A stretch of 64,000 nucleotides of DNA from Coriobacteriales bacterium (GTDB lineage Bacteria > Actinomycetota > Coriobacteriia > Coriobacteriales > UBA8131): assembly GCA_031256715.1 (NCBI GenBank), contig JAIRQA010000040.1, forward strand, positions 16,736-80,735, read 5' to 3'. Shown here one piece after another: positions 2,152 through 42,362 of the stretch (the first letter of the stretch is position 1; every line of letters begins with the position of its first letter). Made by a program: the position numbers and the translations under genes. A model generated the notes under the pieces. That model did not search any database. It was given only the letters and a program-made list of their open reading frames with translations, and was not told the origin of the DNA.

Positions 2152-3615
2152 CTAAAGGCACCAGCGGCGCATGATGGTTTCTGAGCGATCTGGCCCTACG
2201 GCAATGATAGAGACTGGTACACCTGCTAGCTCCTCAAGAAACTCGATGTAGTCTTTGGCCTCTCGCGGCAAATCTTTGTAGTGCCTACAAGCTGTGATAT
2301 CGCCATCCCAGCCAGGAACCTCTTCATAAACAGGCTTTGCATGATGAAAAGCTGTTTGCGAGCCGGGGACGCTTGTATAGCGCTTGCCGTCATGCTCGTA
2401 TGCTACACAAACTTTAATGCGCTCGATGCCACTTAAAACGTCTAACTTGGTGATGCAAAGATCTGTTAGACCATTAACTTCGGCGGCATATTTTACAATT
2501 ACGGCATCATACCAACCGCAACGGCGAGGTCTACCAGTGGTTGTGCCTACTTCTCCACCTACTTTTGCCAGATGCTCACCAATGGCAATTTCTGCGGCAT
2601 CTGCTACGCTGCTAGCATCGACATCATCAGCTAAACCAGAGGCGACATCGCTAGCTGCTGTTGCAATGGTGTTGGCTGCGCTGTTAACGTTGGCGTCATT
2701 TGTAGGGTGTGCGACAGCAGCAGGGTTATTCTGGGCATAATTATTAACGTCGTCATCTATTGGCAAACTTGGCAGCTCGGTTGGAAATGGTCCAGAGCCA
2801 ACGCGTGTAATGTAGGCTTTGGCAATGCCTAGCACTTTGTTAATGGCAGTTGGGCCTACGCCTGTGCCTACGGTTGCGCCTCCTGCCGTGCAAGACGATG
2901 AAGTTACAAAGGGGTAGGTGCCGTGGTCGATATCTAGCAGTGTGCCCTGGGCGCCTTCAAACAAGACCCATTTGTTGTTGCGCAGTTCGGCGTTAAGCAG
3001 TTGACTGGCGTCGGCGATGTGTGGGCAAATGCGTTTGGCGTAGTTTAGATACTCGCTGGTTACTTCTTGTGCGTTAAATGTCTGAAGTCCATAAATTTTA
3101 GAGAGTATATCGTTTTTCTCTTTTAGGGCTACCTCAATTTTCATCAGCAGAATGTGTGGGTCGGTTAAATCTTGCACACGAATGCCCGTGCGTGCCGCCT
3201 TGTCCTGATACGCCGGACCAATGCCACGCCTTGTTGTGCCAATCTCGCCTTTGCCAAGACGTTTTTCGCTGGCGCCATCTAGTTCTAGATGCCATGGCAT
3301 GATAAGGTGGGCGTTTCCGGAAATAAGCAATTTGCTTGTACTAAAGCCTGCTTTTTCTAACATGTCCATCTCGCCAATGAGCACTTTGGGGTCTATGACG
3401 CAGCCATTGCCAATGATGGGGGTAATCTTGGGATACATGATGCCAGAAGGTATAAGATGAAGTGCCAGCCTATTGCCGCCATGAATGACGGTGTGACCGG
3501 CGTTATTGCCGCCCTGAAAGCGCACGACGTAATCGAAGTTATCGCTTAAAAGGTCGGTGACTTTACCTTTTCCCTCGTCGCCCCATTGGGCTCCCACTAA
3601 AACAATTCCTGGCAT
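2152..3615 (-). CDS. purA: adenylosuccinate synthetase with an internal low-complexity insertion
   Basis: [19 protein letters not shown]-loop, GGNNAGHT and [10 protein letters not shown] motifs. Start moved to ATG 3615 (AAGGA RBS) rather than the track start 3660. About 60 extra residues lie between PFPTEL and GEVGTTTGR. Confidence 0.93.
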
Positions 3616-3686
3616 TCTGGTATCCTTACTGTATTGTTTGTTGATTCTTGCAAAATACATACTACTAGAATAAGAGGGAAATTATT

Positions 3687-4427
3687 ATGCAGAATGAAGA
3701 AGAAAATGCCATTGGACTTAGTGATGGTGTAAGTGATAGCGTTTATGCTAGTGCAAACGGTGACGGTGGCGGCTGTGCCGGCAGCGGTGCTAGCGGTGGT
3801 GCCAGCGGCTGTACTAGCGGCGGCGCCAAAGGCGACTCAAGTGATAGCGCCATTGCATGCAAAACTGCCATTATTGTTGTAGACATGCTGAACGACTTTG
3901 TAACCGGCTCGTTGGCCTGCGAACGCGGAGCAGCTATTGTACCTGCGCTGGCTCGTTTACTAGATGGGGCGCGGCGTGCTGGTTGCGATGCCAACGGGAT
4001 TGCGAATGTGCCCATAGTTTACGCCAACGACTGTCATTTACCTGGTATCGATCACGAACTTAAACTTTGGGGAGAACACGCCATGAAAGGTACTTATGGT
4101 GCCGAGGTCGTGTTAGAACTTGCACCAAAAGCGACAGACTACATCGTGCCCAAGCGCCGTTACAGCGGTTTTTTTATGACTGACATGAACATTTTACTGC
4201 GCGAGCTTGGGGTTAATACCGTGGTGATGACTGGCTTGCACACCCACATGTGTGTGCGCCACACAACCGCCGATGCCTACATGCACGGCTATGATGTGGT
4301 GGTGGCAAGCGATGCCACTGACGCATTTACAGAACAAGATTACCTGAGTGGCTTAGAGTACCTACGCACAGTTTACGGCGCCATGATTGCCACAGTAGAC
4401 GAGATTGTTGATGCCTTTTCGCGTTAG
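3687..4427 (+). CDS. isochorismatase-family cysteine hydrolase (nicotinamidase-like) with a G/S-rich N-terminal extension
   Basis: AIIVVDMLNDF (catalytic Asp), KRRYSGF (Lys) and GLHTHMCVRHT (Cys) spacing typical of the isochorismatase/PncA fold. GAGGGA RBS. Confidence 0.75.
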   Translation: MQNEEENAIGLSDGVSDSVYASANGDGGGCAGSGASGGASGCTSGGAKGDSSDSAIACKTAIIVVDMLNDFVTGSLACERGAAIVPALARLLDGARRAGCDANGIANVPIVYANDCHLPGIDHELKLWGEHAMKGTYGAEVVLELAPKATDYIVPKRRYSGFFMTDMNILLRELGVNTVVMTGLHTHMCVRHTTADAYMHGYDVVVASDATDAFTEQDYLSGLEYLRTVYGAMIATVDEIVDAFSR

Positions 4428-4547
4428 GTTTGCGCATTGTGTTGTGCTAATGAGCTTTATGTAAGAACTTTTTATGTCGAGAAGTGCCAACTTCGTGATG
4501 CACTACATAATTGCAAGGTAAAAGTTAGTGGCGTGATGTGCTTTGGC

Positions 4548-40319: not shown

Positions 40320-40343
40320 TATAAAAAGAAAGTGAGAGATGGT

Positions 40344-41195
40344 ATGAAAATTATCGCATGCTGCAAGGCTGCTCCTGAAGAGCAAGACATCGTTGTTAGG
40401 GACGATGGCAGTTTAGACTTTAGCAGGGCAGACTATAAGTTTGGTTCCTACGATCTTAACGCAATTGAAGCTGCACGCGTATTAGCAGATCAGGTTGGTG
40501 GCGAGGTTATTGGTCTTAGCGTGGGTTCAAGCGAGCTAGCAAACAGCAAGCTGCGCAAGGATGCTTTGTCGCGCGGCTTAGACGAGTTGGTGGTTGTGAC
40601 TCGTTCGTCTGTAGGCGAGGATGCAAATGACAGTGTGTCGGATTTAAGTATGTCGGATTTAAGTGTGTCGAATTTGGACAGCTATCAGACAGCCAAACTG
40701 TTGGCAGACGCTTTAGAACAAATGGGTGACTACGACCTTGTTTTGTGTGGAGCAGGCTCCTCAGATTTCTACGCGCAGCAGGTAGGCAATCAGTTAGGGG
40801 CACTACTTGGTATAACTTCGCTTAGCGCCATAAACAGTATAAAGCCTGACGTAGAATCTGATGCCGAGATTTCTGAAGCAGCTACGAACATAGACTCTGT
40901 CATTGTTCAACGACTCTTAGAACAAGAAGTGCAGTGTGTTCGCGTAAAGCTTCCAGCTGTTCTAAGTGTTACATCTGGCATCAATGTGCCGCGTATCGCC
41001 GGAATGAAAGATATTTTGGCTGCCGGCAAAAAACCGGTTAAGGAATTAGTTGCTTTAGGGACGCCGGAAACTAGCACTCAGACCATATCGGTAAAGGCGC
41101 CGCCTGCGGCTAGTCGCAAGCAGGAAATTATTCAGGGTGATGCCAATGAGTCTGTAGCGCGGTTGCTAGAACTTGCATCGTCTGTTCTGCGTTGA
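40344..41195 (+). CDS. fixA: electron-transfer flavoprotein beta subunit, FixA-like
   Basis: MKIIACCKAAPEEQDIVV..DGSLDFSRADYKFGSYDLNAIEAA closely parallels the E. coli FixA N-terminus. Small S/D/L repeat insert at about 40610-40690. Confidence 0.85.
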   Translation: MKIIACCKAAPEEQDIVVRDDGSLDFSRADYKFGSYDLNAIEAARVLADQVGGEVIGLSVGSSELANSKLRKDALSRGLDELVVVTRSSVGEDANDSVSDLSMSDLSVSNLDSYQTAKLLADALEQMGDYDLVLCGAGSSDFYAQQVGNQLGALLGITSLSAINSIKPDVESDAEISEAATNIDSVIVQRLLEQEVQCVRVKLPAVLSVTSGINVPRIAGMKDILAAGKKPVKELVALGTPETSTQTISVKAPPAASRKQEIIQGDANESVARLLELASSVLR

Positions 41196-41225
41196 GTAAA
41201 GCCGATTATAAGAAAGAGGTCATAA

Positions 41226-42362
41226 ATGTCAAATTATTCAATTTGGGTAGTAGCCCACGAAGCAGACGCAGCAGCAGAACTTGTTTCCGGAGCACTTTGT
41301 TTAAGCAGCAATGTGAATGCTGTAACTTTTGGTGGCGAGGCAGTAGCCAAGGCCGCACAGGCGCAAGGGGCATTAACGGTATTAAGTGTTAACGCTATTG
41401 ACACACCTGCTACTGACGTGTCTGCTATGGGTACGCCTGCTACTGACGTGTCTGCTGTTGGCACATCTGGGCCAGATAATACTTTAAAAAACTGCTTGCC
41501 AGAAAATCATAGTAAAGCTTTGGCAAAGTTGCTTCAGGAACGCAATTCTAAACTAACTATCTTTAGCGCTACGGCTACAGGTCGTTTGATGGCAGGTATG
41601 GTTGCCAGCCACTTGGGCACTAGTGCTTATAATGCTGCGTCTATAACTATTAATGATGACACACCTGTCATAACAAGCATGGTCTATGGCGGATGCGCCA
41701 TCGCGACTCGCAGGCTTTTAAGCTCACAGGCAGTTATTACTGTAGGTGCTGGCGTTTTAGGGGCGGTATTGCCAGAGTCGCAAGAGCCGCAAGCGTCTGC
41801 ATTGTCAGCGGCATTGCCGGAGTCGCAAGAGCCGCAAGCGTCTGCATTGTCATCGGCATTGCCAGAGGCGGCAGAGTCAGAGCTAGCGTTGTCAGAGCCG
41901 CAAGCGTCTGGCAGCATAGAGCAGATTGATTTAAGTGTTAATGACAATGCTGCAGTTGTGCTTGAAGTAAAGCCGCGTAAGACAGAAAGTGTAAACCTTG
42001 CTGCAGCAAAACGTGTCATTGGCGTTGGTCGTGGCTTTGCCGCCAAGGAAGATTTAGAGTTAGCGTTTAACTTAGCTAGCAAGCTAGATGCCGAGCTTGC
42101 ATGTAGCCGTCCTATTACAGAAAGCGAGAACTGGATGGCTCGCGAGCGCTACATTGGTGTATCTGGTGTTGTGGTTAAGCCTGAATTATATATTGCTTTG
42201 GGTATCTCTGGTCAGATTCAGCACATGGTTGGCGTGAATCAGGCGAAAACCATCATCGCCATTAACAAGGACAAGAACGCTCCTGTATTCAAACAGGCCG
42301 ATTATGGCATTGTTGGCGATATCTATGAGGTTTTGCCGGTCTTAACATCAGCGCTTTCTTAG
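41226..42362 (+). CDS. fixB: electron-transfer flavoprotein alpha subunit, FixB-like, with two tandem-repeat insertions
   Basis: C-terminal ELACSRPITESENWMARERYIGVSG..KPELYIALGISGQIQHMVG...IIAINKDKNAPVF..ADYGIVGD as in FixB/EtfA. Inserts at 41393-41470 and 41765-41915. Confidence 0.85.
   Translation: MSNYSIWVVAHEADAAAELVSGALCLSSNVNAVTFGGEAVAKAAQAQGALTVLSVNAIDTPATDVSAMGTPATDVSAVGTSGPDNTLKNCLPENHSKALAKLLQERNSKLTIFSATATGRLMAGMVASHLGTSAYNAASITINDDTPVITSMVYGGCAIATRRLLSSQAVITVGAGVLGAVLPESQEPQASALSAALPESQEPQASALSSALPEAAESELALSEPQASGSIEQIDLSVNDNAAVVLEVKPRKTESVNLAAAKRVIGVGRGFAAKEDLELAFNLASKLDAELACSRPITESENWMARERYIGVSGVVVKPELYIALGISGQIQHMVGVNQAKTIIAINKDKNAPVFKQADYGIVGDIYEVLPVLTSALS

Follow-up and report, generated by a model that had tools for sequence, protein, structure and literature searches.

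Canonical enzymes of Plasmodium falciparum carry hydrophilic, non-conserved and probably disordered inserts at their loops, which are widely seen as by-products of slippage, and typical genomes hold tens of variable-number tandem repeat (VNTR) loci. For prokaryotes, Persi, Wolf, Karamycheva, Makarova and Koonin (2023; PMC10120016) described low-complexity regions as the product of a fast and transient process, in which short repeats proliferate by replication slippage in a lineage-specific manner, hit ancestral single-copy genes of individual genomes as well, and decay again through mutation and purifying selection. The genome of Ehrlichia ruminantium (Frutos et al. 2006; summarised in PMC10710844) has exceptionally many locus-specific tandem repeats, concentrated in non-coding DNA and ascribed to ongoing expansion and contraction, with copy-number variation shown between strains. 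The palindromic elements of Rickettsia insert in frame into genes and are compatible with the fold of the protein (PMC10969869). Here, we analyse a stretch of 64,000 nucleotides from an uncultured, gut-type Coriobacteriales bacterium, referred to as the window, in which 12 conserved proteins carry 13 extra low-complexity segments, most of them overlapping DNA tandem repeats.

We consider it probable, at roughly three in four, that these segments are the survivors of short, local and sequence-unspecific tandem duplication that occurs throughout the genome and is filtered by selection. An earlier note, made from the sequence of the window, had pointed to at least ten canonical proteins with extra segments; all 13 segments in 12 proteins were found at the places it gave, and the span it named (2590-41915) fits most of them, with the array of the second LuxR regulator (57707-57819) lying beyond its end. 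Pfam upholds the family assignments of PurA, the isochorismatase, the class I/II aminotransferase, TilS, FtsH, FolP, TrkA, AcpS, NnrD, electron transfer flavoprotein (ETF) beta (FixA), ETF alpha (FixB) and the LuxR regulator, and no intein family was found in the Pfam scans of these 12 proteins. Every one of the 13 segments is in frame, as had been claimed, and free of stop codons, and, tails excepted, they comprise 26-143 aa of low-complexity sequence. The further claim that DNA tandem repeats encode them holds for the ten segments that overlap an array called by Tandem Repeats Finder, and does not hold for PurA, AcpS and most of the FtsH tail.

Tandem repeats across the genome and its family

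The window corresponds to positions 16736-80735 of contig C113 in a metagenome-assembled genome (MAG) of 2.66 Mb, which consists of 145 contigs, has 45% GC and is 78% complete. In a homologue search its PurA is nearest to those of uncultured Coriobacteriales and Coriobacteriia MAGs, with Adlercreutzia and Ellagibacter as the nearest named genera. The comparison set includes 18 family relatives, every one from a different genus than the window genome. A single Tandem Repeats Finder pipeline, yielding non-redundant arrays, was used for the genome and all controls, and open reading frames (ORFs) for the census were defined by a simple longest-ORF rule (n=2007), under which some N-terminal arrays may stem from ORFs called too far upstream.

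The earlier note had proposed a genome-wide census of repeat periods, which was carried out here. Within ORFs, 666 arrays have a period that is a multiple of 3 and 53 do not (93%, a figure partly conditional on ORF integrity, as a frameshifting array breaks its ORF), compared with 198 and 344 between genes (36.5%, where one-third is expected). The exceptions are found mostly in ORFs of less than 160 aa, which probably do not represent genuine genes. Furthermore, not one stop occurs among 16,668 in-frame repeat codons genome-wide, and the two rules together indicate that ribosomes read through the inserts.

Arrays are 4.7 times as dense between genes (1465 per Mb) as in ORFs (314 per Mb) and take up 10.5% of intergenic bases; that the same process is seen between genes supports a mutational rather than an adaptive origin. 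Two-copy perfect duplications, of which there are 637, have a mean of 3.9 extra matching bases at the junction, with none in 21.5%, against a chance expectation that we estimate at about 0.7 bases, with none in about 55%; this excess of microhomology fits misalignment at such sites.

Composition and divergence point to selection acting on what is retained in genes. Hydrophobic residues account for 14.2% of coding arrays in the real frame, for 30-33% in the other frames of the same arrays and in intergenic arrays, and for about 34% of the proteome. Within the in-frame repeats, S, N, T, Q and A are enriched 1.6-1.7-fold and I, W, F and Y are reduced to about 0.3-fold. As the low hydrophobicity is confined to the real frame, it reflects the survivors and not a bias in DNA composition. 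Mismatches between copies number 998, 995 and 1285 at codon positions 1, 2 and 3, and the synonymous fraction is 0.36, compared with 0.287 expected under a kappa of 3.3 derived from intergenic arrays, which gives an omega of about 0.7. The repeat copies thus diverge near-neutrally, under weak constraint.

The density of arrays sets this genome apart in degree. Its 1362 arrays in 2.66 Mb amount to 512 per Mb and 3.92% of bases, compared with 200 per Mb and 1.41% in 11 pooled genomes of the same family (565 kb), 82 per Mb and 0.65% in eight pooled genomes of the same order (600 kb), 181 per Mb in 80 loci of mostly high-GC Actinobacteria (1.4 Mb), and 13 per Mb and 0.71% in 150 kb of Escherichia coli K-12. 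A 600-kb sample of the shuffled genome contains 0 arrays per Mb, so the arrays of the genome are not due to chance. For arrays with a score of at least 100, the density is 230 per Mb in this genome, compared with 62 for the family and 25 for the order. All contigs of at least 20 kb are affected (141-888 arrays per Mb, median 541), and 479 of the 2007 ORFs bear an array (24%; 2-24% in the samples of the relatives). The units are mostly of 9-60 bp and heteropolymeric.

Relatives carry segments of their own. NnrD orthologues in three other genera, L155 (genome G018), L156 (G007) and L157 (G006), contain unrelated P/A/G-rich inserts of 26-75 aa in different loops, which makes the trait family-wide, and TilS of G006 has its own GEDA repeat at a position other than that of the window insert. 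The window genome is therefore not unique and represents the extreme of a tendency common to its family.

Most repeat units of at least 12 bp resemble no unit at any other locus (1179 of 1253; 94%). The remaining, shared units belong to about five dispersed families that resemble repetitive extragenic palindromic (REP) elements (for example, GTAGGGGCGACC...GGTCGCCCGC) and are often tandemly arrayed, as at C131:7191-7435, C41:17960-18281, C6:5910-6043 and C57:5944-6134, among others; these are the sole units common to several loci.

Segments in the twelve proteins

The earlier note held that the segments are absent from orthologues, and in relatives they are indeed either lacking or unrelated in sequence. 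In PurA, 63 A/D/N/V/S-rich residues (aa 297-359; positions 2584-2772, minus strand) stand between FPTEL and GEVGTTTGR. The matched halves that flank this insert abut in all 26 relatives having purA, and the insert is found in none of the 119 homologues aligned with the window protein (a 120-sequence alignment). A search of 5.8 billion proteins, with 8000 candidates scored, recovered only the window's own PurA cluster as a near relative, the two members of which differ solely in the called start, and the insert is unique to the window genome among the 8000 scored homologues. In an AlphaFold model built from the 120-sequence alignment (mean predicted local distance difference test score, pLDDT, 83.5), values of 35-52 are obtained for the insert and of 91-98 for its flanks; a run with 12 sequences was set aside for its mean pLDDT of 55.6. 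The sequence itself is reproduced in a Logan contig from run SRR14710896, made with a different assembler, which is the sole other contig found and matches C113 at 100% identity over 12,210 bp that take in both the PurA insert and the array at 3769-3828.

The latter array, with periods of 12 and 24 bp, lies in the N-terminal extension of the isochorismatase-family protein (3687-3857, plus strand), which comprises 57 G/S/A-rich residues ahead of a Pfam domain that begins at aa 60. The ATG at 3687 sits behind a AAGAGGGA ribosome-binding site, and no other in-frame start codon precedes the first strand of the domain. With this as the only usable start, and a good ribosome-binding site before it, the extension must, to judge from the sequence, be translated. 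For the N-terminal extension of the aminotransferase (7083-7283, minus strand; 67 P/A/T-rich residues, with 4.7 copies of a 39-bp unit at 7094-7272), translation is predicted with less certainty, as the protein could in fact begin at an internal ATG (codon 67), and a strong ribosome-binding site stands before neither ATG.

Internal inserts could be mapped onto solved structures for four proteins, and the alignments agree with the insert sizes given here. In TilS, about 96-103 aa of GGLD/GGLE repeats within the PP-loop domain (9467-9775, plus strand; 12-, 24- and 36-bp arrays at 9484-9634) place 102 residues against 6 in structure 1wy5. The FolP insert (15116-15313, plus strand) adds about 63-66 N/K/T-rich residues after the SFSDGG segment and ahead of the conserved block that follows, aligns 69 residues against 6 in 2y5j and contains 12-bp arrays at 15149-15235, one of them with perfect copies. 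NnrD carries about 70-81 aa of VTKQ repeats (31950-32192, plus strand; 12- and 36-bp arrays at 32049-32143), with 81 residues against 11 in 2ax3, and the same loop ranges from 7 to 122 codons in relatives, with unrelated sequences. FixB holds two inserts on the plus strand, the first of 31 aa (41391-41483; 15-bp array at 41407-41456) and the second of 52 aa at the junction of its two domains (41760-41915; 2.3 copies of a 45-bp unit with 93% matches at 41763-41867), where 60 residues align against 22 in 5ol2_A. In its partner FixA, a 26-aa insert (40605-40682, plus strand) contains 2.9 copies of a 15-bp unit at 40632-40675, and the ETF domain stretches over 208 residues for 169 profile positions.

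The TrkA insert of about 140 aa (20453-20881, plus strand) splits TrkA-C and combines nested 27-bp and 36-bp arrays at 20614-20745 with a degenerate PEAFGRQ duplication. In relatives with a match to each half of TrkA, the halves abut, and most of the open frames measure 215-240 aa. In pairwise alignments, the G006 orthologues lack the TilS, FolP and TrkA inserts, and the TrkA insert is missing from relative G024 as well. The second LuxR regulator carries two copies of a 57-bp unit (57707-57819, minus strand; twice 19 aa, A/T/G/S-rich) between its membrane domain and the helix-turn-helix. The two C-terminal tails are those of FtsH, where 345 aa of low-complexity sequence (13131-14165, plus strand; arrays of 39 bp at 13646-13796 and 9 bp at 14022-14082) follow a Peptidase_M41 domain that stops at aa 614, and of AcpS, where 111 acidic residues (31007-31339, plus strand) follow the ACPS domain (aa 69-164). 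A tail of about 250 aa is present on FtsH of G006 too, with an unrelated sequence.

Several details of the neighbouring gene boundaries were observed along the way. The TilS frame (8846-10477) starts with TTG and is probably too long at its 5' end, with the methionine at codon 80 as the likely start; it ends about 140 aa sooner than the open frame in G006 (G006:C46:111576-112613) and seems to lack a C-terminal domain present there. At 10440-10560, TilS ends in NSNTSKT* and Hpt starts with MMQSSNTSKTK; the two have an 18-nt direct repeat in common, with a perfect 10-bp array of 2.7 copies between them, which resembles a degenerate duplication over the gene boundary. A 12-bp array of 2.2 copies lies over the ftsH stop and the folE start (14159-14185), giving FolE the N terminus MGKA-MDKA.

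Further arrays are found throughout the window. Those in genes, not named in the earlier note, include 36-bp, in-frame arrays in a zinc-ribbon protein (55327-55539, minus strand), a 30-bp array in a molybdopterin oxidoreductase (49812-49872) and a 21-bp array in a hypothetical protein (27378-27418). Between genes, periods that are not multiples of 3 are seen at 5675-5756 (11 bp), 16033-16138 (34 bp), 19714-19928 (25 bp), 32702-32878 (44 bp), 34355-34488 (34 bp), 44093-44191 (20 bp) and 46491-46615 (35 bp). A 65-bp unit duplicated at 62271-62400 (plus strand; two copies, 96% matches) takes in the end of a molybdopterin oxidoreductase gene with its stop, then a ribosome-binding site and 7 codons from the start of the following gene. 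Both genes stay intact, and a new chimeric mini-ORF of 20 codons results (MTRYAIV followed by RLKEWLPTYEGRE). As this duplication spans a gene junction, the same process acts whatever the DNA encodes. A perfect 14-bp repeat of 1.9 copies (2059-2085), with a period that 3 does not divide, is situated towards the 3' end of a 150-aa ORF (1703-2155) that has no Pfam match, and may be a recent frame-changing duplication in the tail of a gene.

Origin and retention of the duplications

In the mechanism we propose, short tandem duplications, mostly of 9-60 bp, would form as the DNA is replicated, when a slipped strand or a template switch leads to misalignment between stretches of microhomology a few bases long, in a lineage without known post-replicative mismatch repair. 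They would arise everywhere and accumulate freely between genes, whereas within genes selection would purge frameshifts, added stops, hydrophobic peptide and hits in structured cores, leaving in-frame, hydrophilic and probably disordered loops, linkers and tails on otherwise normal enzymes. Later rounds of duplication and point mutation would enlarge and blur the segments, with the nested arrays of TrkA as an example, and complete decay of former arrays may explain the PurA and AcpS segments. The insert peptides would be translated yet nearly neutral. Of the earlier proposal of an active repeat expansion tolerated at surface loops, the tolerated process is supported. Activity at present is suggested by 709 perfect duplications and by 70 arrays per Mb with at least 97% identity, and a disordered, surface-exposed state of most inserts is likely from the alignments to solved structures, which place them in loops, and from one AlphaFold model.

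In E. coli, single-strand exonucleases suppress repeat rearrangements, and mismatch repair, as Lovett and Feschenko are said to have found, aborts misaligned intermediates between diverged repeats. Matches to NucS_C and MutL_C occur in none of the 31 genomes of the order that were searched, 14 of them high-quality, and MutS_V is matched in five. The sole MutS_V match in the window genome (C39:1943-2506) lies in a 730-aa open frame with N-terminal membrane helices, which carries two low-complexity repeats itself and, on our own reading, appears to have no recognisable mismatch-binding part; similar matches are present in just 4 of the 18 family genomes. The order-wide absence agrees with a survey in which all analysed Coriobacteriia were without NucS and MutS-MutL (PMC5290159). 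Absent mismatch repair is a plausible permissive factor, and both this role and the slippage mechanism itself are what we infer from these patterns.

Several points weigh against the proposed origin, or limit how far it reaches. Each relative is represented by a small DNA sample (5.5-220 kb per genome), the MAG reaches a completeness of 78%, the organism was seen in one sample only, by protein search and in Logan contigs, and the longest-ORF rule counts frameshift arrays that break an ORF as intergenic or edge. Neither the PurA insert nor the AcpS tail shows a DNA tandem repeat even at a score of 30, which leaves the AcpS tail as a compositional bias only, and in the FtsH tail visible repeats make up no more than about a fifth; that these repeat-free segments arose by duplication is assumed. 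Relative G024 has only 30 arrays per Mb, and with mismatch repair absent order-wide, this absence offers no explanation for the differences between genomes. Loss of XseA (exonuclease VII), a known suppressor of repeat rearrangement, was considered as a cause and rejected, as the gene is present and intact. Finally, perfect duplications of at least 15 bp occur at 63 per Mb, compared with 51-68 in G004 and G006, for which the family samples are largest, and with 47 in the broad control; as these duplications are no denser than in the family, a simple mutator story, with a raised duplication rate, is not supported.

What distinguishes the genome from its family is mostly arrays of intermediate age. 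Those with 97-100% matches occur at 70 per Mb, compared with 48 in the family, those with 90-97% at 162 compared with 42, those with 80-90% at 186 compared with 55, and those under 80% at 95 compared with 55. Arrays of at least three copies are present at 202 per Mb compared with 62, and arrays of at least 100 bp at 119 compared with 27. As the excess is made up mostly of intermediate-age, multi-copy and long arrays, slower purging or a past burst is at least as likely as a raised rate. Unusual retention and a higher rate of duplication are equally likely sources of the excess over the family, and if loss is slower, weak selection, drift or infrequent deletion could be behind it. In its specific form, this would be relaxed purifying selection or a weak deletion bias, at small effective population size, acting on a family-typical duplication rate, a possibility that we place somewhat below even odds. 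It would account for the concentration of the excess at 80-97% matches, for the perfect duplications that are not enriched and for a coding fraction of 0.86 where relatives have 0.88-0.91; however, the arrays with at least three copies and those of at least 100 bp are enriched too, which could mean more expansion events, and the samples of the relatives on which the contrast depends are small.

The other alternatives concern the segments themselves. The earlier note had considered a selected function, such as disordered linkers, and in this form the segments would be modules gained for their benefit, whether as linkers or solubility tails or as regions for interaction or phase separation. A synonymous fraction above the neutral expectation (0.36 compared with 0.287), the strongly hydrophilic composition, the FtsH tail in both this genome and G006 and the repeated expansion of the same NnrD loops in the family can all be read in this way. 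Yet intergenic DNA holds such arrays at 4.7 times the density, with unconstrained periods; the sequences in relatives are unrelated even at common sites; an omega of about 0.7 is far from that of usual functional peptides; the hosts are unrelated housekeeping enzymes with no common need; and the PurA insert is unique among 8000 homologues. As a general cause, selected function is thus not supported, given the intergenic density, the lack of conservation and the omega, and we regard it as unlikely. An origin from small mobile elements inserted in frame, like those of Rickettsia, has a precedent in metabolic genes (PMC10969869), and about five REP-like families do exist in the genome, with a few of their arrays in called ORFs. 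Against it, 94% of the units are unique, copies are head-to-tail, local and not palindromic, and the 13 window segments, when compared with the genome, have no further copy beyond marginal matches of 25-42 bp; locus-specific units without other genomic copies exclude such an origin, which for the listed inserts is essentially refuted and hardly credible. It is also very improbable that assembly or binning created the segments, or that they are missing from the mature protein through alternative starts, inteins, bypassing or processing. The MAG does consist of short contigs and is incomplete, the aminotransferase extension could lie upstream of its internal ATG, and over-extended ORFs may account for some N-terminal arrays of the census, but an independent assembler gave the identical sequence, and the imperfect copies obey the period-3 and stop-free rule, which neither assembly error nor removal before translation yields. 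The internal inserts, moreover, sit between essential conserved blocks, no intein family was found in Pfam, and the isochorismatase extension contains the sole usable start behind a good ribosome-binding site.

The inserts provide a map of tolerated sites in PurA, FolP, TilS, TrkA, NnrD and the ETF subunits. The genome also illustrates in quantitative terms how protein length is set jointly by the supply of mutations and by selection, since duplications that are free of constraint between genes are seen within genes only when in frame, without stops, hydrophilic and at tolerant sites. For annotation in this lineage, inflated protein lengths, split domain hits and over-extended N termini are to be expected. 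The gradient across the family, within an order that is without NucS and MutS-MutL, provides a way to ask what controls the birth and loss of bacterial minisatellites. More speculatively, and with considerable doubt, we put forward that the family might have a heritable mini-duplication regime, strongest in this genome, in which slippage or template switching without mismatch repair, combined with unusually slow purging, would lead to a continuous insertion scan of the proteome. A quarter of the proteins of this organism would in that case carry young, near-neutral and disordered segments, which could be raw material for new linkers and tails, and the genome would offer a bacterial counterpart of the low-complexity proteome of Plasmodium and a natural map of insertion tolerance in essential enzymes.

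Comparison with known systems

Rickettsia palindromic elements and the segments described here both add extra peptide to unrelated metabolic genes; the former, however, are dispersed mobile families with conserved sequence, whereas the latter are locus-unique and head-to-tail. Loci of the mycobacterial interspersed repetitive unit (MIRU)-VNTR type and other VNTR loci are closer in form, as they are locus-specific repeats of minisatellite size, often at gene junctions, and the duplication at 62271-62400 is of this type, but this genome has more than 1000 such loci, hundreds of them within genes.

The closest repeat-rich bacterial genome is that of E. ruminantium, with which the high intergenic repeat load is common. 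Its coding ratio is very low (about 64%), with long intergenic regions, whereas the ratio here is about 0.86 and the window organism looks like a gut anaerobe with broad metabolism; what is striking in the present case is the in-frame load on housekeeping enzymes. In this respect, the closest analogue at the level of the proteome is P. falciparum, as hydrophilic and non-conserved inserts at enzyme loops are found in both, although the latter is a eukaryote with an extremely AT-rich genome and homopolymer runs of Asn and Lys, whereas here mini-repeats are heteropolymeric at 45% GC.

The process of Persi et al. provides the closest description, with short-repeat expansion in coding genes as the shared feature. 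Here it is unusually intense, affecting 24% of ORFs with 512 arrays per Mb, the units are mostly of 9-60 bp and not of 1-5 bp, and the same process is seen between genes. The case thus differs from known ones in degree and taxon and not in kind, and represents the extreme of a known process.

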